Source of the DNA: Perna viridis
Lineage: Eukaryota
Direction of reading: 5' to 3'
Length of the DNA stretch: 64,000 nucleotides
Assembly: GCA_037379345.1 (NCBI GenBank)
Contig: CM074513.1
Span: forward strand, 60,181,195 to 60,245,194
Under the pieces are notes generated by a model. The model did not search any database, was not told the DNA's origin, and saw only the letters and a program-made list of their open reading frames with translations. A program made the position numbers and the translations under genes. Below, piece after piece: positions 1,845 through 64,000 of this stretch. Position 1 is the first letter of the stretch. Every line of letters begins with the position of its first letter.

Positions 1845-3051
1845 ATGGCTGCTGATAGACCTCGGCGAAATATCCCTGGAATTAACTATAAGAGTTTTTC
1901 AGAATATGGTTTTCCAGATGCTTCCAGTTTGAAGTCGGCTGAAAAAGAGGAGGTAACATGTAAATTTGGAGACATCGGAGATAAAAAAAAAAAACCCAAG
2001 TAGCATTAGGAAAAAGCTAGATCAGGCTATCAGCTTAGATCGATCTTTCAATGAAGATGACGGTAGTGATGAAGAGTCGGTACAGTTGAAGTTAGCCTTG
2101 AAGGCTACAGAGGTTAGAAAAAGAAAAACGGAACTTAGAGAAGAGCTCAGAAGAAGCAGTTAGAGTTACAGAAGAGCAAGGTGAGAATGAGAAATGTGTT
2201 AAGTCAAAGAATTCGTTTAAGACAGATTCTAAAGATATTTCTTTGAATGATTTAAGACAGTTCGAGTGATTGAATGCTTTGGTAGATAAAAAATTGTCTA
2301 AATTTGGTATTCTGGATCAGGATATTAATTCCAGTTCGTCATCGTCAAGTGATGACTCTCACAAAGGGGCAATAAGAAGTAAAAAGAAGTTTGGTAGATT
2401 TGAAATTTTTGCTAGTACGGATTCTAGCTCTGACAGTGATGATTTAAGATCTAAGAAAAAGAAGAAGAGAACAAAATCGGGTATAATAGCTAAGGCTTCC
2501 GACAAAGTCAAAACACAGTTGCTCTGGCCCCAGTCTGCTCTCCAGTATGCATTTGTAAACCAGTCTGTGTCGTTCAACGACTTGGACGTGAAGCAATTCG
2601 GTGAATTGGAAATAATCACCAGTAAGTGCTTTTCTGAGAATGAGCGGAATGGGCGTTTAAACTTGCTAAAAAGATTACATATTACAGCAATATATATGTA
2701 TGGAAAGGTTTGCTGTCTTTTTACGCGGCATGGTTGAGAAAAATTGAGTTGGGTCAGAAGTCTTGGGATGACGATCCGTCTTCTATAGAAGTCTTAATTC
2801 TTACACAGTATGTGCTTCCTAAATCAAAGATGTCTGTTCCTTTTTCTAAACCAGCAGAGAGTAATAAAGTTTGGTTTTGTACTTTATTTAATGGGAATCG
2901 TTGTACGCAAAAAGGGGCCCACAAGACTTTTATGAAAGGTCAGCAAAGATTAGTGCAGCATATCTGTGCAGTCTGCTTTAAAAAAGATAAAAACAAATTG
3001 TTTCATCTCGAATGCGACAGTTTTTGTCCTAATTTTCCTAAATCGGGATGA
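1845..3051 (+). pseudogene. Ngaro gag-like ORF1 (frameshifted)
   Basis: Starts MAADRPRRNIPGINY at 1845; Ser/Asp/Lys-rich middle; C-terminal Cys/His cluster ([22 protein letters not shown]); broken across ORFs 1966, 2270 and 2710. Confidence 0.7.
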
Positions 3052-3480
3052 CTAGCACCGAAATCGTTTTCTGCTATGAACCCGGAGGCCGAAATTTTTT
3101 ACCCGCATATCTAAAGTGGGTTACTCTTACATCAGATTCTTCCGTCACGAGTAACAATCTTAAGTTGGGTTCTGACAAGCCTATTGGTTCAGATTGTAAA
3201 GTTTGTCATGAGATTAACGAGTTGGACAAAGGCTGGTTTAATTGTTTAGATATTTTTTTTGCAGATCATGAACGTATTATGCTTTCTAAAAAGTACAATT
3301 ACGAATTCCTGTTTTATCGCGTTTAAATATCGATTTTTTCAAATTTATGTTGACAGGGTATGATGATTATGATGTGTGCACTTCTTTAGAATATGGTTTT
3401 CCGATGAAAATTCAGAAAAAAAATTATTCTGTTCTTTTCACAATGACAAGGGAGCGGTTGAGTTCCCCGACGATATTGAC
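3048..3480 (+). pseudogene. Ngaro RT N-terminal fragment
   Basis: GYDDYDVCTSLEYGFP followed by N(H)KGAVEFPDDID, resembling the GFP...NHxxA region that precedes DIRS/Ngaro RT domains. Confidence 0.65.
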
Positions 3481-3632
3481 AATCACAAGGGAGCGGTTGA
3501 GTACTCAGACGATATTGACAATTACAAGGGAGCTGTTGAGTTCCCAGACGATATTGACAATCACAAGGGAGCGGTTGAGTTCCCAGACGATTTCACAATC
3601 ACAAGGGAGCGGTTGAGTTCCCAGACGATATT
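3442..3632 (+). repeat. 39-bp tandem repeat, left part (about 5 units; AATCACAAGGGAGCGGTTGAGTTCCCAGACGATATTGAC)
   Basis: Units begin at 3442, 3481, 3520, 3559 and 3597; each encodes NHKGAVEFPDDID; the array is interrupted by the Polinton. Confidence 0.95.
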
Positions 3633-3781
3633 AGTGGTAGGATAATCACAATTCTGCAACACACCCCCTTTTCAAGCAGAAATCCTGCATAGGACCCCCA
3701 ATTTCGGGCTCCGGGGTGCAAACGGATCGTGAGCGAGTCAAGGATGCTGAAAAGTGCTGGGAGGCAAGGCATATGGGGCGT
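3633..3781 (+). repeat. Left terminal inverted repeat of the Polinton
   Basis: Reverse complement of 14098-14249 with a few mismatches and small indels. Confidence 0.95.
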
Positions 3782-3950
3782 GGAGGGTCTTTTCCGATGG
3801 GGGGATATCTCGTCGGAAAAGATTATTTTCTTGCGTCATTCTTAGTAAATTATCTCCCCTGAATTTGAATCAAAAATAGAATTTTTTCAATTTGTTCGCG
3901 CCATAGACTACGGAAAGGAGAAAGAATCGGCCAGATTACAAAAAATATGC

Positions 3951-4605
3951 TTCTGATGAATTTCAATAATTTTTGCCGGGGTCCGAAGACATGCAGGGGA
4001 AAATTTGCAAATTATTTTAGGTGATATGCAAATTTTCCCACACCTTTCCGAAGCAATTACTGGAATAGGGTAGTATAAATACCGCTCGAAAATTTAACTA
4101 GTAATACAGTGCACAATCTTGGTGATCAAGAAATATCACCATTCCAGCATTTAAAAATTGAATGGTATAAATAAAAAAATGCCATCCAAGAATCAAATCT
4201 GCGAAGATAGCAGACCAACCTCATCCCCCAAAAATCAGCAATTCTGCAATACCCCACTGAAAAGGAAGATGGGGCAAATTCTGATGAATTTCAATAATTT
4301 TTGCCGGGGTCCGAAGACATGCAGGGGAAAATTTGCAAATTATTTTAGGTGATATGCAAATTTTCCCACACCTTTCCGAAGCAATTACTGGAATAGGGTA
4401 GTATAAATACCGCTCGAAAATTTAACTAGTAATACAGTGCACAATCTTGGTGATCAAGAAATATCACCATTCCAGCATTTAAAAATTGAATGGTATAAAT
4501 AAAAAAATGCCATCCAAGAATCAAATCTGCGAAGATAGCAGACCAACCTCATCCCCCAAAAATCAGCAATTCTGCAATACCCCACTGAAAAGGAAGATGG
4601 GGCAA
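3951..4605 (+). repeat. Near-perfect 328-bp direct tandem duplication inside the Polinton left end
   Basis: 3951-4277 is repeated at 4279-4605; ORFs 4158 and 4486 start identically 328 bp apart; each copy has GTATAAATA motifs. Confidence 0.95.
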
Positions 4606-4629
4606 CTTTGCAAGGGCAAACCCGGGAAT

Positions 4630-5300
4630 GATGGACTTTACTCCCCCCGGCAAGACGATGCCGACCAGCCGATCGGGGGGAAATTTCGGGTGGTTGAGAC
4701 CATGGGGGAACTTAGGAAAATTACTAAGGAGGAAGGGGTGGTGGGATATAGCAGGAAAAATAAGGTCGACTTGGTGAGGCTGATCGAGTCGACCACAAAC
4801 CGGAAATTCACTCGCCGGGAAGTATGTACCAAGAAGCAGCTCAAAGAGATGGCGCGTCGGAGAGGGATCACCAACATCTCCCGGCTGAGGAAAGATGAGC
4901 TGGTTGAGAAGGTGATTCAGGGGCTTGAAGACGTCGCGGACCAGATCGAGGTGCTGGACAAGAGGGAGGCCTTGGGTGGGGTATTTGGCATAGTGATCAT
5001 CAAGCCCAAGATGCAACAGGACGTGGAGAATTTCATCAAGGTGAGCTGGGGGACCATCCGAAGCAAGATTTCCGAGGGGCTGGCGGGGTTGAAGATGGAG
5101 ACAATCATCCACGTGAGATGGTAAAGATCACCCCGGTGACCGGTGAGAATATATACGCCAACTTCGAGTACTTCACCACAAAGATTGAGCCTGAACCGGC
5201 GAAGGCTGGCGTAGACGGAATCGTGTAACTGCTGGTGTGCATGATGAAGACTACCTTCCAGAAGGTAGAAAGGGGCGAGCCCTCCAATTCACATACCAAA
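4630..5300 (+). pseudogene. Polinton ORF with two Rho_N/HEH-like helical repeats and a region resembling the pPolB N-terminus
   Basis: ELRKITKEEGVVGYSRKNKVDLVRLI and QLKEMARRRGITNISRLRKDELVEKV; then EALGGVF...LKMETIIHV-MVK; frameshift near 5118 and stop at 5226-5228. Confidence 0.55.
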
Positions 5301-5319
5301 GTCCTTCAGAAGCACGGAG

Positions 5320-6195
5320 AATGGGAGAGGCATCACCTTGCGCGAAGTGATCGGCCGGGAAAAGCTGAAGCATATCGTCACGCACCCGGAAGACTACGAG
5401 CTTGGGAGGCGATATATCAAGGGGAAGGTCGATCAGGATGCTCAGCTGACGCTCTTGCAGGATTACTTGGCCCGCACCAATGCCCTGGGTGAGTGCCCGA
5501 TGCGATATTACCAGCGCCATGGCTTTGGGAGGTACTGGTCCGACGAGAAGATCGGTCTCCAGAATATAAGCCGCCGCATCCGGCATACTCTCTGCGCAGA
5601 TCATATGATCGATATCGATATGAAGAATGCGCATCTGACTCTGCTCTCATGGTATTGCCACGAAAATGGTATCGAGTGCACGGGGCTCGACGCATACATC
5701 GCGGACCGAGAGAAGCTTATCGCGGACCTGATGGCCTACTAGGGAATAGATCGGGATGATGCAAAAACCTACCTGCTCGCCATCATCAATGGGAAGATCG
5801 TCAGACTCAAGCATGAAGCACGGACCTGGCTCAGGGACTATGATGGGGGAATGAGGCAGATCGTGGAGGAAGTGATCAAGCTGAATCCTGACTTGCATAA
5901 GCTTGCCTGCGAATCCAAGGAGAAGAGGGGGGCGGACTACAATATCGAGGGTACAACCGTGAATTACGTCATGTTCTCCCTGGAAAATAAGGCTCTGACG
6001 GCAGCCTTCGACTACCTGACCGAGCAGGAAATTGAGATGGGGCGCTCGTATTCGATGGGCTGATGATTCATAAGGGGGTTCCGCGCACCAGGCTGCCCGA
6101 GATTCTCCAAGGCTGCTCCCAGAGGGTGAAGGAAGCCATCGGGGCTGATATCACCGTCACGGTCAAGGAGATGGATGAAGGATACGATATCCCTA
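5320..6195 (+). pseudogene. TV-Pol (family A polymerase-related transposon/viral polymerase) domain
   Basis: FGRYWSDEKIGLQNISRRIR (PolA GR..LQNI), DIDMKNAH (motif A), RDDAKTYLLAIING (motif B), ALVFDGLMI (motif C); in-frame stop at 5740-5742 and frameshift near 6040. Confidence 0.8.
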
Positions 6196-6197
6196 CT

Positions 6198-7470
6198 GCG
6201 TGGGGGTTGACCATGGCTTCCCAGAGATATGCCCGGGCGAATAATCCCTACGTGCAAGACTTCGACCTTAGCAAGCCGACCAACTATCTGATGTATCTGG
6301 ACGCCATGAGTCGGCCCCTGCCGACCGGAGGATTCGAGTGGATCGACCCCTCGGAAGTCCCAGACCTCAGCACGCTCGGCGAGGATGATGAGCAAGGGTA
6401 TATCTTGAAAACGGATCTCGAATACAACAGGGAGCTCCACGATCGCCACAACGACTATCCCCTGGCGCCGGAATACATGGTGATCAATGGAGTCAGGAAG
6501 CTGGTGGCCAACCTCCACGATAAGCAGAAATACGTGGTCCACTACGTAAATCTGAAGAAATACCTTGCCCGGGTCTGAAGCTGAAGAAGATCCATCGCGC
6601 CATCCGATTTACCCAGAGCCCATGGTTGAGAAAAATACGGCTTGTAGGGCGGCGGCATCCACCACCTTCGAGAAGGACTTCTTCAAGCTCATGGTCTTCT
6701 CAGTATTCGGGAAGACCATGGAGAATATCCGCAATAGGGTGGACGTGCGGCTGGTCAATAGCGAGAAAGTCGCTGGGAAGCTGGTGGCCAAGCCCAACTT
6801 CAAACGCAGGACGGTCTTCAGCGAGGATCTGGTTGCCGTTCACATGTATCGCACCAAGCTGGTCTTCGATAAACCGATCTACCTAGGCTTCTCCATCCTT
6901 GATCTATCGAAGACTCTGATGGCCGACTTCGTCTACGATCATCTCAAGTCCCGGTATGGCGACCGACTCAGCATCTGCTACACGGATACGGATAGCTTGA
7001 TCTGCGATATCCAGACGGCGGACGTATATAAGGATATGGCGGAGAGCGTGCAGCAGAGCTTCGATACGTCCAACTATGCCCCAGACCATGTCTCCGGGAT
7101 CCAGACAGGAGTGAATAAGAAGGTGATAGGCAAATGCAAGGATGAGTGCGCCGGCCAGCCGATGACCGAGTACGTGGGACTCCGACCGAAAGCATACGCC
7201 TTCAAGATGGATCGCAAAGAGTGCAAGAGGGCTAAGGGCGTGATGAAAAGCGTTGTCGAGACTGATCTGACCTTCGCCGACTATAAGGAATGCCTTGACA
7301 CGAGCAAGGAGAAATACCGCTCGATGAATATCATCCGCAGCCGGCTCCACCAGGTTCTTACCCTAGAGACCTGCAAGAAATCCCTCTCCTCCAATGACGA
7401 TAAGCGCCACATCCTACCAGACGGCATCAACATCCTCGCGCATGGCCACTACCGAATCTCCCGCGACTGA
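6198..7470 (+). pseudogene. Protein-primed family B DNA polymerase, catalytic half only
   Basis: RYARANNPY..YLMYLDA(short deletion)MSRPLPTGGFEW, HNDYPLAPE, FFKLMVFSVFGKTMEN, YTDTDS, VGLRPKAY, DDKR; frameshift near 6580-6620; no exonuclease domain present. Confidence 0.92.
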
Positions 7471-7652
7471 GGTGGCCACCCCCAAACCCCATCCCCTCCA
7501 CCCAGAATTTCTCGAGGTCCATGGGTCTCGGTAAAATCTACCCGCTCCGCCGCCCTATCTGCACTTTGCAGGCTCTGACGGGTGCGGATGTCCATTCCTC
7601 CTCTTCGGCACTTGGCAGGGTCTGACGGGTGCGGCTGCCCATCCATAGATAA

Positions 7653-8024
7653 ACGAGCAGCATACGCATGCACGACGTGATCCTCCCCAACAAGCCCCTT
7701 ACCAATCTCGAGCTCGAGCGAGCCGTTAGGAAGCTGCACATTCCACACTTCAGAGGCGTCTTCATGCGCGACGACTTGCCGCCCAAGCCCCAATCGATGG
7801 ACTTCAGAGCGCTCAGGGGGAAAATGGATAAGAAGGCGAATAAATCAGACTGCCTCAACACCAACGGAGGGCTGGTGGATACGGTGCTAGATATGCGAAA
7901 ATATCCTCTCATCAACCTCCCACTCCCCCAGACCGACAACGATCCCGTCACCAAAGTCCTTTACGATCAGCTAAAGAATGAACTGGACGCCCTGAGGGTA
8001 TTCGTTGAGCTGAAGCAAGCGTAA
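7653..8024 (+). pseudogene. Adenain (C5) protease N-terminus joined by a deletion to a fibre/neck-like C-terminal fragment
   Basis: PLTNLELERAVRKLHIPHFRGVFMRDDLP is typical of Polinton protease N-termini, but no catalytic His/Cys follows; it runs into GG..LDM..INLPLP..DPVTK; in-frame ACG in TAAACG at 7653. Confidence 0.7.
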
Positions 8025-8076
8025 GAAGATCGCCTTTTTGGATGCTCATAAAGGGCATCCGAAAAAAGTCTCCCCT

Positions 8077-8935
8077 TTACTCTACGTCCGATTGCTTGAC
8101 CCATGAGTTGAACGATGCAGGGTAGCCCCGCCATTTGACGTAGATCTCTTTGAACCCATTCTTGGTGCGTCGTCGCAAGATCTTTTCGATGCGATAGACG
8201 TCTTGGTCGGTGCGCTGGAGCTCGGGCTCGTAGAAGGATCCCTGGATCTCTTCCTGGTTGAAGTCCTTGAGGCGATAGGTCGGTGGGTGAGTATTCAACT
8301 GATTCGAGACGGTGAAGACTTCTTCCGTCCAGCGGGGCGTATATCCCTTCTCGAAAATGCCTTTCTTCTTGGTGATCCGGACCTTATCTCCGACGCTGAA
8401 TCGTGGCGTCTGCATGGGCGGAAGGTCTCCGTAGAGATTCCAATAGACTTTTGCATGGTGCTCTTTCATGTTGGCGACGGTGGGGGTCATCTTGATGGAT
8501 CGATGCTTGGTGGTACTATACTGCCGGACGAGATCATCCAGGATGGGGAGGTAGGTGCGCGTTGAATTGGCCGAGAAATATTTGAACATCTTCTTCTTCA
8601 TGGTGCGATTCCAGCGCTCGGCGGCGCTCGATTTCTCCTCGTGGAGTAGAGCTCTCGACGCCATGCTTCCGGAGCAACTCCGTTGAATGCTCTGAAGGCA
8701 TCTCGCACCGTTGGCTCCCTTCTTATCCTTGAGCGACACCAGCCAACCGTACTTGGAGAAGAAGTCGATGATGCTCAGGATGAAGCGATGGCCTTTGTTG
8801 TCGTGGGATAAGGCGTTCATATCCACGAGGTCGGCGGCCCAGGTATCGTCCACTCCGCCGACGATCACGCGCCTCTTCTGAAGTTTACGACGGTTTGTGC
8901 AGCTCTTCTGCTAGTTGGTCCGACCAGCGCACTTG
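8077..8935 (-). pseudogene. Retroviral-type (rve) integrase with C-terminal chromodomain
   Basis: WSDQLAEELHKP..WAADLVDM..IDFFSKYGW..AERWNRTMK..KGYTPRWT..YRIEKILRRR..YVKWRGYPASFNSWV; the central DDE Asp region is damaged. Confidence 0.92.
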
Positions 8936-8997
8936 CTTCTTTTTTTAACGCCCATTCCGAACCGCGTCTTAGCGCCGATCAGGGGTCGGACGATTTT

Positions 8998-9426
8998 TCA
9001 ATCCATCCTCTCTAGTGCCGTGGGGTCGGTGATGCCGTCAAGCTGGTTGAGCATGGCCTTATCGCAGACAGAATTTTGCGAAGCCGTGTCCTTGTGCTTG
9101 GCATAGCAGAGATTGTGGTGATAGGCGGCCCGATCGACTCGATTGATGGGAATCGACCAGGGTTTGGGGGTGCCGTCTGCATTCAGACGCTTCTGGAGGT
9201 TGGTGCCTGGACCGGTGAAATTGTGGCCGGGCAGATGCATTTCGACCGGCAGTCGGTTGATGAGCGTATTCATGATCCCGGTGCCCTTGGAGGCGACGAA
9301 CTGAGATTTCCTCGATCCACTCACGGCGCAAAGTCCACCCCTCCGTTTCCGTCCATTGCTGGTGACGACCTCGAAGCGACTGAGCGTCTCGGTGGGTTTC
9401 TTTCACTTCAGGCAATATATCGTCAT
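8998..9426 (-). pseudogene. PLA2X (parvovirus-type phospholipase A2 domain) with an N-terminal zinc-ribbon-like segment
   Basis: MTIYCLK*KKPT..TSNGR..LCAVSGSRKSQF is in frame with HLPGHNFTGPGT..INRVDRAAYHHNLCY; TGA at 9403-9405. Confidence 0.85.
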
Positions 9427-9434
9427 TTATGTAA

Positions 9435-9645
9435 ATGGACGTTGACGACCTTTATTACCATGCTTCTGCGTCCGCCAGGAGCAATCACTTCCTTCTCCAA
9501 TAGCGATCGATTCGAGATCTGATCGTCGGCAAGTCGGACTGCGGCAAGATGACGCTGCTGAATAACCTTCTCCTACGCTCGGGGTGGTTGGACTACGATC
9601 GCCTGTACGTCTTTGGCAAGTCGCTCCACCAACCTATCTCCCAAC
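9435..9645 (+). pseudogene. Packaging ATPase (FtsK/A32-like) N-terminal fragment
   Basis: ATG at 9435; LIVGKSDCGKMTLLNNLL (degenerate Walker A), WLDYDRLYVFGKSLHQP; stop at codon 23; truncated by a deletion. Confidence 0.8.
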
Positions 9646-9661
9646 GTCTGCAAGCCGATCT

Positions 9662-10122
9662 GATGGAGTGTGGTGAATGCGAGTGTGCGTGCAGACATGA
9701 GGTGGAAGATGAGGCGTGCCCAAAATGCGGCGTGGTGTGGCTCGGGTATAGCTTTGCCCAGGATGACGTCGAAACACTGGGAAAGTATAATAGCAGACCT
9801 CGTCCCCCACCCCACCCCATGCGGTCAAATGACGACGAGAGGGCATCCATGCCCGCTTCCCTGTGGGGGAGGTAAAGACGTATGCCAGAAGCACTTCAAC
9901 CTCTCTCAGAAGGCACGCTGCCAGCGAATGCTCAAGACCGGAAAGATCTGCCTGAAGAATTGCCCCCAAGGAGCTATCGCTTGCCGCCGGCATGTACGCT
10001 CGAACGCTCCCCAGAACGCCCCGGAAAACGCAAACTCTCCCTCAAACGCTTCCCCGGACGCCTACGCTCTCTCACGCTCAGAGCGTATCGCGTGGGCAGC
10101 CAAGTACGACCGATGGTGGTAA
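9662..10122 (+). pseudogene. Cys-rich Polinton accessory protein (CxxC ribbon plus two C..C..CxxH fingers)
   Basis: MECGEC..CPKCG, then after a frame change CGQMTTRGHPC..CQKH and CQRMLKTGKIC..CRRH. Confidence 0.5.
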
Positions 10123-10182
10123 AGTCGTCTGCCTTTTCGGATGCTCCTGGGGATTCGAAAAGTCGTACGCATCCCTATAAAA

Positions 10183-10545
10183 ATGAGCGTCATCAAGATC
10201 ACGATCAAGGAGCAGCGCGATGCTCTGGCCAAGGAGATGCACGCTCTCAGGCAGAATATCAAGGCAAATAGCATGAGAGACCGCCTTGAGAAGCAGAGGA
10301 TCACACGTGACCTCACCAAATTTTTCAAGCCCGTGGTGGAAGCGCAGGAGAAGGCCGCCACCCAGATCACTAGAAAGATCGACGATATTCCTCTTGCGCC
10401 TCCAGCCCTTTTACCCCACTACCTCCCCAGTTTGCCGATCCACCACTGCCCATCCCTCTGACTACCGATACCATCCTCGGACCGCGTGCGCAGCACTATC
10501 TGCAGCTGAGCATGACCAATCAGGCTGATCACGTCTTCGGACTGC
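10183..10545 (+). pseudogene. Polinton hypothetical coiled-coil protein, truncated
   Basis: TATAAAAATG start; MSVIKITIKEQRDAL..LTKFFKPVVEAQ..; after a frameshift, GPRAQHYL..DHVFG. Confidence 0.55.
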
Positions 10546-10632
10546 TAGCTCGCTACCCTAGCGAAGCACAAGGGGAATATCCACAATCTCATCGCAGGCG
10601 CAGGCATCGCTCACGTGCGCTTCTATAGATAA

Positions 10633-35769: not shown

Positions 35770-37277
35770 CTAATCCAGCGCAGACATGCGCCTTTCCGTC
35801 CGTCTGTCAGTCCGGAAAAAAAGTTGAAGTTTTCCGCATCATTTTTTTCATAACGCTTGCATACAATGAGTTGATTTTTGGTATATGCGTCAACCTTGAT
35901 GAGTTACAGATCAAGTTTGCGTTTCGATCTGCGTCGCTGATATTTGTCCGAGTTATGGTCCTTGAACTTCGAAAAAATTACCGAAATTTAAGTTTTCCGC
36001 ACTATTTTTCTAAACGCTTGCAGATATTGAGCTGATTTTTGGTATGTGAGTCAACCTTGATGAGTTACAGGTCAAATATAAGGTTTCGTTCCGCTCCGCT
36101 AATTTTTGTCCCAGTTATGGCCCTTGAATTAACCAAAATTTAAGTTTTCCGCACTTTTTTCTGAATGCTTGTACATATTGAGCTGATTTTTGGTATGTGA
36201 GTCAACCTTGATGAGTTACAGGTCAAGGTAAGCGTTTCGTTCTGCTTCACTTATTTTTGTCCAAATTATGGTCCTTGAACTTCGAGAAATTTACCGAAAT
36301 TCAAGTTTTCCTCTTTTTTTTTCAAATGCTTGAAAATATTGAGCTGATTTTTGGTATGTAAGTCTACCCTTATGAGTTACAGATCAAGTTTTGGTTTCGT
36401 TCCGCTCCGCTGATTTTGTCCATGTTATAACCCTTGAACTTTGAAAAAAAAAAGTTTTCCGCACTTTTTTCTGCAAGCTTGCAGATATTGAGTTGATTTT
36501 TGGTATGTGAGACAATCTTGATGAGTTGCAGGTCTAAGTAAACGTTCCGTTCAGTTTCGCTGATTTTTGTCCAAGTTATGGTCCTTGAACTTTTAAAAAA
36601 TTACCGAAATTTAAGTTTTCCGCAGTTTTTCCTAAATGCTTGAAAATATTGATCTGGTTTTTGGTATGTGAGTCAACCTTGATGAGTTACAGGTCAATAT
36701 AAACGTTTCGTTCTTCTTCGCTTATTTTTGTCCAAGTTATGCCCTTGAACTTTGAAAAAAAATACCGAAATTTTATTTTTCCGCACCTTTCTTCTAAACG
36801 CTTGCAGATATTGAGTTTGGTATGCGAGTCTACCTTGATGAGTTACAGATCAAGTTTATATTTCGTAACCGCTTTGCTGATTTTTTTCCAAAGTTACCAA
36901 CTTTCAGTTTTACGCGCTATGCCAAAATTTTAGTTTTACGCGCTTTTTTTTCTTTTTTTATAGATTTAAGATATTGAGTTATTTTTTTTTTTGTTTTTTT
37001 GTTTTTTTTGTTTTTTTTTTTACAAATCAGTCTCAACCGTTATTTGAAACCTAATCTGTCCAATTATTCGTGCATAAAACTTTGCAAATCTGCATCTATT
37101 CAATGGATTTGAACATATTTCTTGTCTTTGTCCAATCCCTTCTTCTGTTCAAAATCAAGGTCATTTCCTCGGTTTGTCATTTATACTTGATGATCCAAGG
37201 TCAGTATTTGGGTCAGTGATATTAACAGCCGGTAGGGGACTATGTATTGCTTTGCAATACTCTCAGAATGCTTGTTA
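35770..37277 (+). mobile_element. Helentron-associated non-autonomous element (HINE-like) with an internal ~156-bp tandem array
   Basis: CCGTCCGTCTGTC near the 5' end; about 7 units (GATGAGTTACAG-like at 35898, 36059, 36210, 36371, 36520, 36681, 36837); 3' hairpin GTATTGC-TTT-GCAATAC. Confidence 0.7.
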
Positions 37278-44449: not shown

Positions 44450-45150
44450 TGAATCAATCTCTGTGGCCCTCTGTAGTTTTGCATCCATTTCTGAGGCCCG
44501 CTGTTGTAATGAATCCATCTCTGTAGTCCCGCCGTGGTAATGAAACCATCTCTGTGGCCCCGCTGTGGTAGTGAAGCCATCTCTGAGGCCCCACTGTGAT
44601 AATGAATCGATCTCAGACTGTGACCCGCTGTAGTAATGAATCCATCTCTGTGGCCCCGCTGTAGTAATGAATCCATCTCTGTGGTCCCGCTGTAGTAATG
44701 AATCCATCTCTGTGGCCCCACTCTAGTGATGAATCCATCTCTGTAGCCTCGCTGTGGTTATGAATTTATCTCTGTGGTCTCGTCGTGGTAATGAATCCAT
44801 TTCAGTAATGAAGCCATCTCTGTGGCCCCGCTGTGATAATGAATCGATCTCAGACTGTGACCCGCTGTAGTAATGAATCCATCTCTGTGGCCCCGCTGTA
44901 GTAATGAATCCATCTCTGTGGCCCACTCTAGTGATGAATCCATCTCTGTAGCCTCGCTGTGGTTATGAATTTATCTCTGTGGTCTCGTCGTGGTAATGAA
45001 TCCATTTCAGTAATGAAGCCATCTCTGTGGCTTCGTTGTGGTACTGTATACATCACTGTGGTCCCGATGTGGCCTTGCTCTGGTAATGAATCCTTCTTTT
45101 TTGTCCCGCTGTGGTAATGAATCCACCTCTGTGGTCCTGCTGCTGTAATT
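44450..45150. repeat. 31-bp minisatellite (ATGAATCCATCTCTGTGGCCCCGCTGTAGTA)n
   Basis: About 22 units, with an internal higher-order duplication. Confidence 0.92.
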
Positions 45151-59400: not shown

Positions 59401-62400
59401 TATAGTCCACTCATCCATTAAATACAAATAACATTTGTAAATTAACATGTAAAACAAAACACATTGTATGATCGGTTGTAAGAGCAATCAAGGGAACCAA
59501 GGTTATAGCGGTAATCAAAAGAATGTAATCCAGGGACAAAGACCAGACATGGAAAACAGACATACACAACAAAGAACATAAAGGAACTAAAATCATACAT
59601 ATAAAGTAACAAAAGCAAATGAGCAACTCGAACTCCACTAAAAACTGGGAGCATGGACCAGGTGCACCGGTAGGGTAAACGTCCTCTGCTTTTCTAGAAA
59701 CACCCGCCGAGTTGCTCATAAAAAGTCAAGTCCGGGGTAGACAAACGAGGAAAGGAAAACTATGACCCGTTGAATAAGTTTTCATGGTGCTGATGGATAC
59801 ACCATAACGATCCACGAGTTCATGATGACGACCATAAAACTTCTGTAGTGATGACTTCAATCTTGTAACGCCCCGTGCAGGTCCGGGTGTTAAAAGAATA
59901 GGCCTGCAGCAGCGCTAAGCTTGTCGTAAAAGGCGACTAAATAGTGCTCAGAACCCTAGCCGGGGGCTAGGGTGCTCTGCCCACAGAGCAACTGGGATGT
60001 GTGCCCCAGGTTGTGGAATGGGGTACTCCTGGCGTGTTACATGCTGGGGTTGTCAGGCTATAATACGGAAAACCTGACCGCAAACCATACTGGTTGACCG
60101 TGTTGGGAAAGATGCCATGTTCCTCGCACGTTAAAGAATCCTACTGTGGTATTCTCCCGGAGTATGAACCATAGGGCTCCGCCACAGGAGGCTAAATTGC
60201 CCGACCCTACCCACCTCTCCCTATTTCCAGTGGCAATCAAAATTTGTCGACCCCAATGTCCTTGTGTCCCATCCCTTTTTCATTTCATTATCATTTCATG
60301 TTCATTTCCTCATCAATTTCATGTTCATCGTCTGAATATAGCTGAAATATTGCTGCTCGGACGTTAAACCCCAACAAACAAACAAACAAACATCAATCTT
60401 GCAGCACAATAACCCTGTTCCAGAAGCCTATTTGTTAGAGTTTTAGCGCGATACAAAAAGTCTGCGTAGTTTCGACAAGCTCTGGCATAATTTATGAGTT
60501 GTGATATGAATACTCCATACGCAGGTGCCGAAGGGGTGTTGCCACAGATAAAAGGAAAGTTGACAATTCTGAATGAAAAGTCATCACGTTTGTCGTAAAG
60601 TTTGGTCAATAGTTTTCCTTTACCATCGATTTCTAATTGTAGGTCAAGATATGAGGCTGACTTCACAGTGTCGGTAGTATCCTTTACCTCAAGTTCTTTT
60701 GGGTAGATGCGATGTATCAAATCCCCGAAATTAGGATTGTTTAAAGATAATACGTCATCTATATAGCGGAAACTGAGATTGAAGGATCTAGCCAAACGAT
60801 ATTCTTTCTTTCTGATCAGATCAGCTATAAAGTCAGCCTCATAAGAGTGAAGGAATAGGTCAGCAAGTAAAGGAGCACAATTTGTTCCCATTGGAATGCC
60901 GACCGTTTGTTGAAAAACACGTCCACCACACTGGACAAATATGTTGTCGATTAAAAATTCAAGCATTTTGTTAACATCTTCCTCTGTATATTTGGAAGAT
61001 GATTGGGAATTATTTCTTACAAAGTATGAGGAATCTCTACCAAGAACTATATATTTGTATCTAGGTGTACCATCTTTTTTGGAAAAACAACGATGTATAA
61101 CGTTTTTAACTCGAGATTGTAACTGAGTATGGGGAATAGAAAAATATATTGTTGAAAAATCATAGGTTTTAATGCTATTATATTCAGATAATAGTCTTGA
61201 ACTGATTGTCTCCAAAAGATCTTTCCACATTAAATTGATATCATTACGGGAGTAACAAGCGTTGTGGTAGGAGTGCAGACCCTCTTTGACAGTTGTGAGT
61301 ATAGAAGTTAAAAGTTCTGAAAGTTTTTGTTTTGGTGGTACATTTTGCAGTTCCACCTATGAAACGTTGTTTGTATGGATTCTTGTGGAGTTTAGGAATC
61401 CAGTACATAGATGGTAAATCACAATCATCGTCCTTGGTAGAGAGACCAAAAGAGGATAGCACAGATTTATGGTTTTCCACAATCACTTCTTTGGAGAGAG
61501 TGGTAGCAGTATAGGTCTTATCACTGCTATTATTTTCTACGTCTACCTCTGATAATAAACATTGGATGTAAAACGTTTTGCAGACAAAAACAATGTTGTT
61601 TTGGGCTTTGTCTGCTGGTACGACAACATATTTTTCATGCATAGTAGACAATGTTTTTGCTACATCGGGGTCTTTGAAAACTGGTGTAGCCTTGGCACTC
61701 ATTGACCTACTTAAAACTTTCATTCGTTTGAAAATTAAAGACCTCACGGCCTTTAACCAGTCTGCCAGAGTATCAATGTCTTCTTGTTCTCGTTTTATCC
61801 ATTTTCTTGCATAGTCCTACAAATTATTTAAAAAAAAAAATAAACCATTTTTCCTTATCATTTCAAAAACAAAATAAAATATTGTAAACCCTATAATTGC
61901 TGAAAAAAGTAAGTTACCTATGTAACCTATACTGTACGTCAATAGTAATATACCTACGTTACCTATACCGTGCGTCAATAATAATTTACCTATGTTACCT
62001 ATACCGTACGTCTTTAGTAAATCTCATATGTTACCTATACTGCACTTCTCCAGTCATTTACCTAAGTTACATATATTGTACGTCTATAGTAACTCTCCTG
62101 TGTTAGCTATATTGTATTTCTCTAGTATCTTACCTATGTTACATATACTGTATTTCTCCAGTAATTTACCTAAGTTACCTATACTTTACTTCACCAGTAA
62201 CTTACCTATGCTTCCTATACTGTATTTCTCCAAATATTTACCTATGTTACCTATAATGTACTTCTCCAACAACTTACCTGTGTTACCTATACTGTCCTTC
62301 TCTAGTATCTTACCTATGTTACATATACTGTATTTCTCTAGTCACTTATCTATGTTACATATACTGTATTTCTCCAGTAATTTACCTGTATTACCTTATT

Positions 62401-63513
62401 TTACTTCACCAGTAACTTACCTATTATATTGCCTATACTGAACTTCTCCAGTCACTTACCTATGTTACCTATACTGTATTTCTCCAGTAATTTACCTGTG
62501 TTACCTATACTGTACTTCTCTAGTGTCTTACCTATGTTACATATATTGTATTTCTCCAGTAACTTACCTACGTTACATTTACTGTACTTCTCCAATAATT
62601 TACCTGTTACCTATACTGTAGTTCTCCAGTAACTTACATATGTTACCTTTACTGTACTTTTTCAGTAACTTACCTATATGTGTATGTCACCTATACTGTA
62701 CTTCTCCAATAACTTATCTATGTTATCTATACTGTACTTCTCCAGTTACTTACCTATGTTACCTATACTGTACTTCTTTAGTAATTGTCTGTGTTTTGTA
62801 TCTTTTTCTCTCCATTCGTTAAATATTTTCTTGAATGTAATAGGTTCATGATCTTCCATAATTCGACAAATTGACTGGTGAGAAGGGTATCCATTATGTT
62901 TATTGAATGCCTGAGAAAAAAATATAGGCTAATATAGAAATGTGTCGAAACAAATCAAACCCATTGTTTCCACCTTCAACTCTGAAACTGGTAACTATGA
63001 CGAATTGACAAAATAACTAAATTCTTTATTCGCCCCTTATCATTGAATAAGAAATAATCTAATTCTAATTTGTTGTATGTGAACAGAATAATAGTTGATT
63101 TAGTATAGGAATCTTTAATCAAATTTTGCACGGAGTTATTTGTATTACATAACAAGATGCTAACTTCATTTAAATATTGAAACTTTGTGCGAATTATTTC
63201 AACCTTCAAACTTTTGAATGATGATAAATCTTCAGTATATTAAACTGTCAATAATAAAACATATTTTGTCACTTAACACAAAAAATTACAATAATTTTAT
63301 CATTAATCATTCTTCACTTTAATACAAATCAATTGATCTTGTTTTAATTAATACAATTCTCATTTGTTTATATACCATCACAGAATAAATTAGTTATATG
63401 TTTTTTTTTACCTTGCCTCGTTTAATACCATTCATCGCTGCATTCTCATTGGCTAGTGATCCAACCCAAACATATAGAGGACATGACGGCCCTGTATCTA
63501 AAAGGTAGCTATC
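50493..63513 (-). CDS. Villin/advillin-like protein (gelsolin repeats 3-6 plus headpiece); 5' part lies beyond the window
   Basis: 17 phase-consistent exons (545 aa): 63412-63513, 62754-62910, 59143-59240, 58769-58906, 58351-58437, 58098-58163, 57733-57822, 55612-55695, 55326-55387, 54597-54696, 54251-54337, 54076-54120, 53857-53922, 53498-53623, 52665-52736, 51624-51719, 50493-50654. Motifs DSYLLDTG..YVWVG, IWRVE..GSCYIVL..YYWVG, GKEPTHF, SLNS..WYGK, IFIWIG, HEPETF..W, HLTE..LPLWKQ. Confidence 0.93.
50879..51388 (+). mobile_element. SINE-like element, copy 2 (last intron of the villin-like gene)
   Basis: TSD TTGTGAGTT at 50870 and 51389; (AATC)n tail. Confidence 0.9.
56000..56185. repeat. 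Short ~45-bp tandem repeat (about 4 units)
   Basis: CTTGTCATC.ATTGGTTGGTAATTGTCGCGG.TTAATTCCTT repeated. Confidence 0.8.
57370..57622 (-). mobile_element. Short HINE/MITE-like element in a villin intron
   Basis: AACAAG start, GGACGGAC motif, terminal CCCC..GGGGGACAAAAA hairpin. Confidence 0.5.
59481..61820 (-). mobile_element. 5'-truncated Penelope-like element (Naiad-type RT, no C-terminal GIY-YIG) in a villin intron
   Basis: VVVPADKA, YWIPKLHK, TYDFSTIY, GIPMGTNCAPLLADLFL, FRYIDD; SINE-like copy 3 is inserted near the ORF end. Confidence 0.92.
59870..60392 (+). mobile_element. SINE-like element, copy 3 (nested in the Penelope-like element)
   Basis: TSD TCAATCTTG at 59857 and 60393; (AAAC)n tail. 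Confidence 0.9.
61910..62790. repeat. 36-bp minisatellite derived from a villin exon 3' end plus its splice donor
   Basis: (TTACCTATGTTACCTATACTGTACTTCTCCAGTAAC)n, about 24 units; the last unit overlaps exon 62754-62910. Confidence 0.92.
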
Positions 63514-64000
63514 CTAGAACAAAGATATAGAGGACATGACGGCCCTGTATCTAAAAGGTAGCTATCCTAGAACATGACGGCCCTGTATCTAAAAGGTAGC
63601 TATCATAGAAAATGACGGCCCTGTATCTAGAAGGTAGCTATCCTAGAACAAAGATAAAGAGGACATGAAGGCCCTGTATCTAAAAGGTAGCTATCCTAGA
63701 ACAAAGATATAGAGGACATGACGGCCCTGTATCTAAAAGGTAGCTATCCTAGAACATGACGGTCCTGTATCTAAAAGGTAGCTATCCTAGAACAAAGATA
63801 TAGAGGACATGACAGAACTGTATCTAAAAGGTAGCTATCCTAGAACAAAGATATAGAGGACATGACGGCCCTGTATCTAAAAGGTAGCTATCCTAGAACA
63901 AACATATAGAGGACATGACAGAACTGTATCTAAAAGGTACCTATCCTAGAACATGACGGCCCTGTATCTAAAAGGTAGCTATCCTAGAACAAACATATAG
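63470..64000. repeat. 53/38-bp tandem array derived from a villin splice acceptor plus the exon 5' end
   Basis: CTAGAAC(AAAGATATAGAGGAC)ATGACGGCCCTGTATCTAAAAGGTAGCTATC repeated at least 10 times; runs off the end of the window. Confidence 0.92.

Follow-up and report, generated by a model that had tools for sequence, protein, structure and literature searches.

Minimal family-A DNA polymerase domains of the TV-Pol type are described from the PolA-S3H replicases of virophages (Sputnik V13, Zamilon) and PLVs; in the accessible part of the original account, they are predicted to be primases and stated never to be fused to nuclease domains (Iyer 2008, PMC2579912). PolA-SF2 (Herpes_ori_bp) proteins have been described as well (Barth 2026), and in Group 2 Polintons a PolA-helicase stands in place of the family-B polymerase pPolB. 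For pPolB, in-frame insertion of HNH or VSR domains (Jeong 2023; Krupovic 2024, PMC11161782) and fusion to helicases (Tlr1-like pPolB-S1H; OmPLV SF1-pPolB, PMC12721341) are on record, whereas polisuvirus genomes carry pPolB and PolA as separate replicase genes (Barth, Ha, Aylward 2026, 10.64898/2026.10.13.758929). For the PolA of the latter, autonomous movement has been proposed, perhaps through collaborative homing. The locus presented here belongs to a different type: in animal Polintons, a family-A polymerase domain is nested within pPolB. The arrangement is real and conserved, and the window, that is, the whole 64-kb stretch of DNA analyzed, holds a broken copy of it.

The host element is a decayed 10.6-kb Polinton (3633-14249), a GC-rich island within the window, which ends in terminal inverted repeats (TIRs) and is flanked on both sides by the 6-bp duplication GATATT. 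TIRs with AG..CT ends plus a 6-bp target duplication, which we take to be the definition of Polintons (Polintoviricetes), were present in 5/5 Polinton copies checked; as each of the five carries its own 6-bp duplication, they are separate integrations. The gene set comprises pPolB, a chromo-domain integrase, a PLA2-like gene, an ATPase remnant and a double jelly-roll (DJR) capsid gene. pPolB, rve integrase, A32 ATPase and DJR capsid were thus all found, the rve match being weak (E 0.007, in a sister copy). The features are as follows (P0006 is an intact relative of the polymerase, see below):

3627..3632, no strand: left 6-bp target-site duplication, GATATT; the hexamer is repeated at 14250-14255
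3633..3781, plus strand: left TIR with AGT start (repeat analysis)
3951..4578, plus strand: exact tandem duplication of 328 bp covering the region where pPolB starts; of the copies compared, the window's alone has it
4507..5162, plus strand: pPolB N-terminus with two Rho_N-like repeats, equivalent to P0006 residues 1-214; terminates at a deletion
5154..5316, plus strand: decayed Exo I remnant, equivalent to P0006 residues 484-549; HNH and Exo II come next in sisters and are deleted in the window
5315..6200, plus strand: TV-Pol/family-A polymerase domain, equivalent to P0006 residues 774-1072 (from ORFs and alignment; fold from a sister's unbroken frame)
6199..7470, plus strand: pPolB palm, fingers and thumb, equivalent to P0006 residues 1215-1644 (phi29 fold taken from a carrier)
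7653..8024, plus strand: truncated ORF, in sisters a small His/Cys-motif protein without Pfam match; by its place among the genes, a candidate adenain-type protease
8077..8910, minus strand: decayed integrase of retroviral type that includes a chromo domain (rve match at E 0.007 in a sister copy)
8998..9402, minus strand: PLA2-like (PLA2X-type) virion gene, a gene class as in the accessible text of PMC8502044
9504..9640, plus strand: packaging ATPase remnant (Pox_A32 matches in sisters)
10633..11921, plus strand: PF21738 match (Pfam, E 3e-43)
11908..12543, plus strand: probable minor capsid gene without Pfam match, which we assume from its position to encode the penton
14098..14249, minus strand: right TIR with ACT end (repeat analysis)
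14250..14255, no strand: right 6-bp target-site duplication, GATATT, pairing with 3627..3632

The PolA-type motifs that a preliminary description of this DNA had claimed (GRY..LQNI, DIDMKNAH, RxxAK..ING and FDG) were located between 5527 and 6060 as GRY, LQNI, DIDMKNAH, RDDAK..ING and FDG. The residues characteristic of TV-Pols lie at ~5527 (GR), ~5617 (motif A Asp), 5752-5766 (RxxxK) and ~6054 (FDG Asp). The PolA stretch is interrupted by a TAG stop (5740-5742) and a frameshift near 6045, and pPolB is damaged as well, by another frameshift near 6570 and by the shortening of its motif A. The same description had TV-Pol reading in frame into pPolB, and the frame 6036-6578 is indeed stop-free, leading from FDG..VKEMDEGYDIP to RYARANNPY; however, this joint is a microhomology deletion scar, and the PolA part itself is broken. 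Aligned with P0006, the window retains residues 1-214, 484-549, 774-1072 and 1215-1644; residues 215-483, 550-773 and 1073-1214 are missing from it, and the joints carry short microhomologies. Since the sister copies keep the intervening sequence, and since the joints show microhomology, both the TV-Pol-to-palm joint at ~6200 and the missing exonuclease are deletion scars. Contrary to what had been supposed, the exonuclease is not wholly absent: the Exo II and Exo III region is gone from the window, but a decayed Exo I remnant persists (5154-5316).

Searching the genome at the DNA level gave 18 matches, which are the window, 10 sisters (80-91%) and older copies; the protein search yielded one additional old locus. 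In 9/10 sisters, the PolA-like stretch is joined upstream to HNH and Exo II (the tenth is without its 5′ part), and in 8/10 it continues on its downstream side into KGVYPY and Exo III (deletions of their own have affected the remaining two). At the position of the ~6200 joint, these eight contain 370-430 bp encoding KGVYPY and Exo III (one of them 2.2 kb). The sister elements, in which the preliminary description had proposed to inspect the stretch between TV-Pol and pPolB motif A, have no helicase there: unbroken natural frames lead from Exo II via the insert to KGVYPY (L011, 481 aa; L021, 483 aa) and from the insert via Exo III to motif A (L013, 498 aa). The insert of ~310 aa accordingly occupies a loop that separates Exo II from Exo III in the exonuclease of pPolB, and it keeps the reading frame. 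Four older copies have the identical layout, and four other Polintons of the same genome are empty at the insert site.

Intact versions are also found in public assemblies. P0006, a protein of 1644 aa, is 94% identical over the insert, and its cluster holds five 1644-aa proteins that are 92-100% identical to it; the closest named database members of the window's polymerase cluster are Mytilus proteins. P0006 is followed by nine further long carriers (pPolBs with the insert) at 54-63% and then by PolA-SF2 replicases at 42-48%. The spacer from the DSF to the KGVYPY anchor measures 339-401 aa in 15/15 carriers and in 23/23 cluster members spanning both anchors. Its median is 32 aa (25-82) in insert-free relatives, as measured in the 179/236 in which both anchors were found (the remaining 57 have no recognizable anchor). 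Among these further top relatives, the insert was not found in any (0/119 and 0/117; 0/236).

Together, these data decide between the readings first considered for the locus. That two separate polymerases lie side by side and lost a helicase between them is rejected: no helicase was found in 26/26 element stretches, in a search whose control detected helicases in viral loci, and the intact carriers have no room for one. A separate transposon with its own TSD is not tenable either, the domain residing in pPolB context at all 14 other carrying loci of the genome. Nor was the fusion created by deletion in the window copy alone, as intact carriers exist. The suspected true chimera is real, but it is nested in the exonuclease, not fused ahead of an exonuclease-less pPolB. 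The 5 viral-contig and 11 metagenome-contig loci did not include any free viral genome bearing the chimera; one contig is a carrier, its reading frame broken inside the insert (L036), and the remainder are distant relatives, the five that were tested being of TV-Pol-D5 type. The carrier elements constitute a virus-like family in marine animal genomes.

By sequence, PolA went undetected in the insert in Pfam, PHROGs and PDB-sequence searches and by hhalign against T7 gp5, which aligned motif B alone (probability 0.2); tblastn against phages gave no match, and the leads from an atlas search all stayed below 0.9, with 16-27% of members bearing PF00476. The structure predicted from a sister's unbroken frame (pLDDT 96.5, pTM 0.92) was used for a structure search (VIA), in which the top 17 matches were all family-A DNA or T7-type RNA polymerases. 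Superposition with Klenow aligned 281 residues (Z 15.4, rmsd 4.2), and the best viral match was the Zamilon virophage replicase (E 2e-21, TM 0.76), which bears out the assignment as TV-Pol made from the sequence. The PolA fold covers residues 4-311 of the 313-residue insert, and no nuclease is present inside it. A whole-library search returned 3776 relatives of the insert, with the domain N-terminal in most of the matches listed; 31 of 38 relatives scanned have a helicase-type (29 plus P0453) or pPolB (P0427) family. A natural carrier of 1162 aa, which begins downstream of the N-terminal terminal-protein and vOTU domains, gave a model (pLDDT 87, pTM 0.78) with confidence in both parts and a low-confidence linker, the top structural matches being phi29 polymerase.

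Measured against the TV-Pol domain as defined in the accessible text of PMC2579912, the modeled insert presents the family-A fold (thumb, beta-hairpin, RRM palm, HTH fingers) without an exonuclease of its own. The defining residues (hairpin Arg, two palm Asp, fingers RxxxK), assigned by position and alignment rather than by side-chain superposition, are present in 21/21 long carriers and in the window copy. TV-Pols have been described as stand-alone proteins, fused to a C-terminal D5 helicase or with an N-terminal helical domain, whereas the insert is nested in an exonuclease beside an HNH. By domain, it is a TV-Pol; its architecture is none of those described.

Both polymerases appear to be under constraint. 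Besides the invariant Arg, Asp and RxxxK residues of the insert, Exo II and Exo III are retained in 21/21 long carriers and every other pPolB motif in 20/21, the 21 representing six or seven clusters with many near-copies. Exo I-III, Pol A-C and a phi29-like fold were thus found in carriers, and are broken in the window copy. For the insert, dN/dS was 0.17 (11 genome copies, 55 non-independent pairs, range 0.08-0.83), compared with 0.17-0.23 for three flanking segments of the same copies, and synonymous sites are free to vary (pS 0.24). This shows purifying selection on the insert, at the level of its flanks. With the in-frame nesting, the family-A fold, both motif sets intact, purifying selection, an insert clade on non-monophyletic backbones and one conversion tract (see below), the existence of a TV-Pol-pPolB chimera is practically beyond doubt.

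If the insert were an intein or a self-splicing intron, its removal would leave a normal pPolB and a free TV-Pol. It is in frame, site-specific and mobile in the way inteins are, and Krupovic 2024 suggests, in the available text, that the nuclease inserts of pPolB derive from intein invasions (PMC11161782). However, carriers gave no Hint-type Pfam match, 3/3 loci gave no Rfam match at E<=0.1, the PolA fold fills the insert, and a pS of 0.24 also speaks against it. Inteins begin with Cys or Ser and end with His-Asn; the ends of the insert vary and show no such fixed residues. Splicing is thus extremely improbable. Because there is no Hint domain and no Rfam match, and because the fold fills the insert, a single unspliced two-polymerase protein is very likely made. 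RNA data amount to 7 raw reads and sparse contigs in 4 runs, none of them spanning a joint, a coverage too thin for calls on expression or splicing.

In trees computed quickly (LG+G4, SH-aLRT only), the inserts fall into one cluster (SH-aLRT 96), which sits among PolA-helicase replicases and also takes in two unlabelled fragments. The carrier backbones are non-monophyletic (AU p 3e-50 and 8e-42 for the two flanks), a single backbone clade of carriers being rejected at p<1e-40, and the backbone trees require 5-6 changes. P0013, P0217, P0219 and P0293, which failed the anchor pattern, were left out of the first flank trees; in the later ones, P0013 was entered manually, while P0096 was taken out because of its long branch. 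P0010 lacked the length needed for the N tree. The nearest relatives of P0008, 82% identical, are empty at the insert site, and inserts 91% identical to each other reside in backbones 65% and 80% identical in the flanks. The most direct trace of transfer is found in P0083, which agrees with the empty P0490 at 240/273 informative sites outside a tract at ~630-1056; within this tract, it matches the carrier P0068 at 8/8 sites on the upstream side and 23/23 sites on the downstream side of the insert. No second long tract was seen in the 55 pairs, which were compared at the protein level between predicted proteins, and the pattern is that of gene conversion into an empty site. On these sequence comparisons, lateral spread of the insert by gene conversion is highly probable.

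One ancient insertion, passed on vertically and lost repeatedly without any lateral spread, would account for the inserts being one clade at one common site and for insert groupings that partly mirror the backbones (P0007 with P0011, P0008 with P0009). It would, however, need many exact excisions, each restoring a spacer of 31-32 aa, as well as the 5-6 changes on the tree, and it leaves the 91% insert identity on 65% and 80% flanks and the P0083 tract unexplained. Purely vertical descent is thereby largely refuted and very improbable.

Lateral spread by conversion raises the question of what drives it. Like a homing element, the insert has a fixed site, empty alleles in close relatives and flank co-conversion (in one tract); the endonuclease of such an element is missing, there being no nuclease in the insert. 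The neighboring HNH was considered as a co-traveling driver and rejected, because it lies outside the tract and is also present in insert-free relatives. Because pPolB is a mosaic elsewhere too, as illustrated by P0006, which is placed differently in the N- and C-flank trees, ordinary recombination might suffice to disperse an insert that is neutral or useful, with no homing machinery involved. Alternatively, the polymerase could be selfish, of no benefit to the virus and kept active because it copies its own coding sequence wherever the empty site of a co-infecting Polinton is broken. Sitting in a tolerant loop, such a homing element would require neither splicing nor a nuclease of its own. 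An insertion site that stays fixed on distant backbones, relatives that are 82% identical but exactly empty at the site, a conversion tract centered on the insert and a patchy, rare distribution would all agree with this. So would P0427, in which a PolA-like domain has entered pPolB a second time and independently, in another pPolB type and at a different site, beside another endonuclease-like stretch (its VSR label found no match in a pattern search of two genome loci), and the PolA/AEP mobility proposed in the accessible text of Barth et al. 2026 (10.64898/2026.10.13.758929). Yet the insert kept a dN/dS of 0.17 while at least 11 copies spread vertically within one family, which is more readily explained by a benefit for the element than by decay between rare homing events; moreover, the insert contains no nuclease, and the HNH lies outside the tract. 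A selfish polymerase is therefore unlikely. It is only slightly less doubtful that a new class of mobile element is at hand, namely a bare polymerase domain that resides in frame in polymerases without splicing or a nuclease of its own, promotes its own transfer into empty sites and has invaded Polinton pPolB at least twice, independently each time, leaving animal viruses with one protein that has family-A as well as family-B active sites.

As the best explanation overall, and with moderate confidence, we favor a TV-Pol that sits in frame in the proofreading loop of pPolB, stems from a PolA-helicase, spreads by recombination and provides a predicted priming site. The domain would have been acquired from the PolA-helicase replicase of another small DNA virus, a donor among the PolA-SF2/SF3 replicases being likely, and recombination would then copy it, with short flanks, into the empty site of other pPolB lineages. 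The predicted second active site would prime or re-prime displaced single strands or freshly excised element DNA, and would hand the primers to the adjacent pPolB site, which is processive and proofreading. As to function, such priming or re-priming is the leading option, at roughly even chances and by analogy: CCPol, of the TV-Pol class, has been shown to prime DNA, with Klenow extending its primers (PMC7581432, available text). The analogy is weakened because CCPol primes only with its partner MP and extends primers when alone, and no MP counterpart was identified in the Polinton. The rarity of the insert (0/236 further relatives) argues against a large general advantage.

The same behavior of CCPol, extending without priming when alone, would suit a domain that serves, next to the proofreading site, as an active accessory polymerase for lesion bypass or gap filling. 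The fold is about equally near to Pol theta, Pol nu and Klenow (Z 15.1, 13.2 and 15.4), and pPolB has a terminal-protein primer of its own (PMC11161782, available text). However, the closest relatives of the insert act as the only polymerase in replicases fused to a helicase, which depend on priming, and an auxiliary role without priming is quite improbable. The carriers would combine, in a single natural protein, the active sites of DNA polymerases from two unrelated families, one lodged in the proofreading domain of the other, and would offer an assayable handle on the role of TV-Pols of eukaryotic viruses; by 2020, bacterial CCPol was the only TV-Pol that had been assayed (PMC7581432, available text). 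The chimera also looks like a standing intermediate in the swapping of pPolB and PolA modules among small DNA viruses.

The preliminary description had considered the arrangement unfamiliar in animal Polintons, and a PolA domain inside pPolB was indeed not described in the open running text of the literature searched. The nesting of A in B is thus apparently undescribed. With the TV-Pol/PolA-S3H replicases, the insert has the minimal family-A domain and its motifs in common, and it ends where the polymerase domain of the PolA-SF2 proteins (Barth 2026), to which it is 42-48% identical, ends; unlike in PolA-helicase replicases, it has no helicase and lies inside the exonuclease of a family-B polymerase in animal Polintons. 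CCPol-MP of SCCmec has a PolA domain of the TV-Pol class as well, one with demonstrated polymerase and primase activity, but CCPol is bacterial, stand-alone and dependent on MP, a partner for which no counterpart was identified here. HNH- and VSR-bearing pPolBs share the HNH (Endonuclease VII) backbone and the in-frame mode of insertion; here, what has been inserted is a further polymerase, from a different family; it occupies a different site and is found in a scattered minority of backbones. The pPolB-helicase fusions are likewise very large pPolB-based replicases of Preplasmiviricota, but are joined end-to-end with a helicase, whereas here two polymerases are nested and the exonuclease is kept. 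Inteins and homing endonuclease genes in polymerases are also site-specific and in frame, with flank co-conversion, but the insert contains neither a splicing domain nor a nuclease. The polisuviruses also combine pPolB and PolA in one element, in the accessible text as separate replicase genes, whereas here both form one polypeptide, with a fixed site and a mapped conversion tract; the fixed site, the empty alleles and the tract make the proposed autonomous mobility of PolA directly testable.

Besides the Polinton of the window, four older and more diverged Polinton copies (L051–L054) carry the TV-Pol insert at the same site, and at L057–L060, loci of the same genome, this site is empty. In the sister copy L025, ∼1.8 kb of extra DNA directly follows the insert downstream (L025:5892–8095). 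The Polinton of the window itself is integrated mid-way in a 39-bp tandem array, which resumes on both sides. A dispersed ∼290-bp repeat is present in several copies in the window, and the LINE-like fragment comprises, as judged by eye, an endonuclease and a reverse transcriptase.

Repeats and retroelement fragments of the window
3398–3618 and 14215–14435: 39-bp tandem array flanking the Polinton
18953–22309 and 2270–3326: LINE-like and gag-like retroelement fragments (labeled by eye)
35839–36994: tandem array, unit ∼160 bp
44467–45137: tandem array, unit ∼31 bp
61836–62820: tandem array, unit ∼36 bp
63425–64000: tandem array, unit ∼53 bp

The pPolB loop between the DSF and KGVYPY motifs, where TV-Pol resides, is tolerant of insertions, because unrelated Cys-rich inserts of ∼40–55 aa are also found there (proteins P0007 and P0218), irrespective of whether TV-Pol is present alongside. 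The N- and C-flanks of the insert in the intact carrier protein P0006 occupy separate places in the pPolB tree; the pPolB of P0006 is mosaic around the insert region. Another protein, P0443, is a fusion that combines a TV-Pol-like domain with NUDIX and with an origin-binding helicase of SF2.

A PolA-like domain (residues 871–1172; 32% identity) was also found in P0427/P0478 (1766 aa, from Logan), the pPolB of which is of a type (PF03175) differing from that of the carriers. There, the domain is placed between Exo III and motif A. As its branch in the tree is remote from the carrier clade, P0427/P0478 likely represents a second, independent invasion of pPolB by PolA. The stretch around this domain presumably resembles a VSR-type endonuclease insert.
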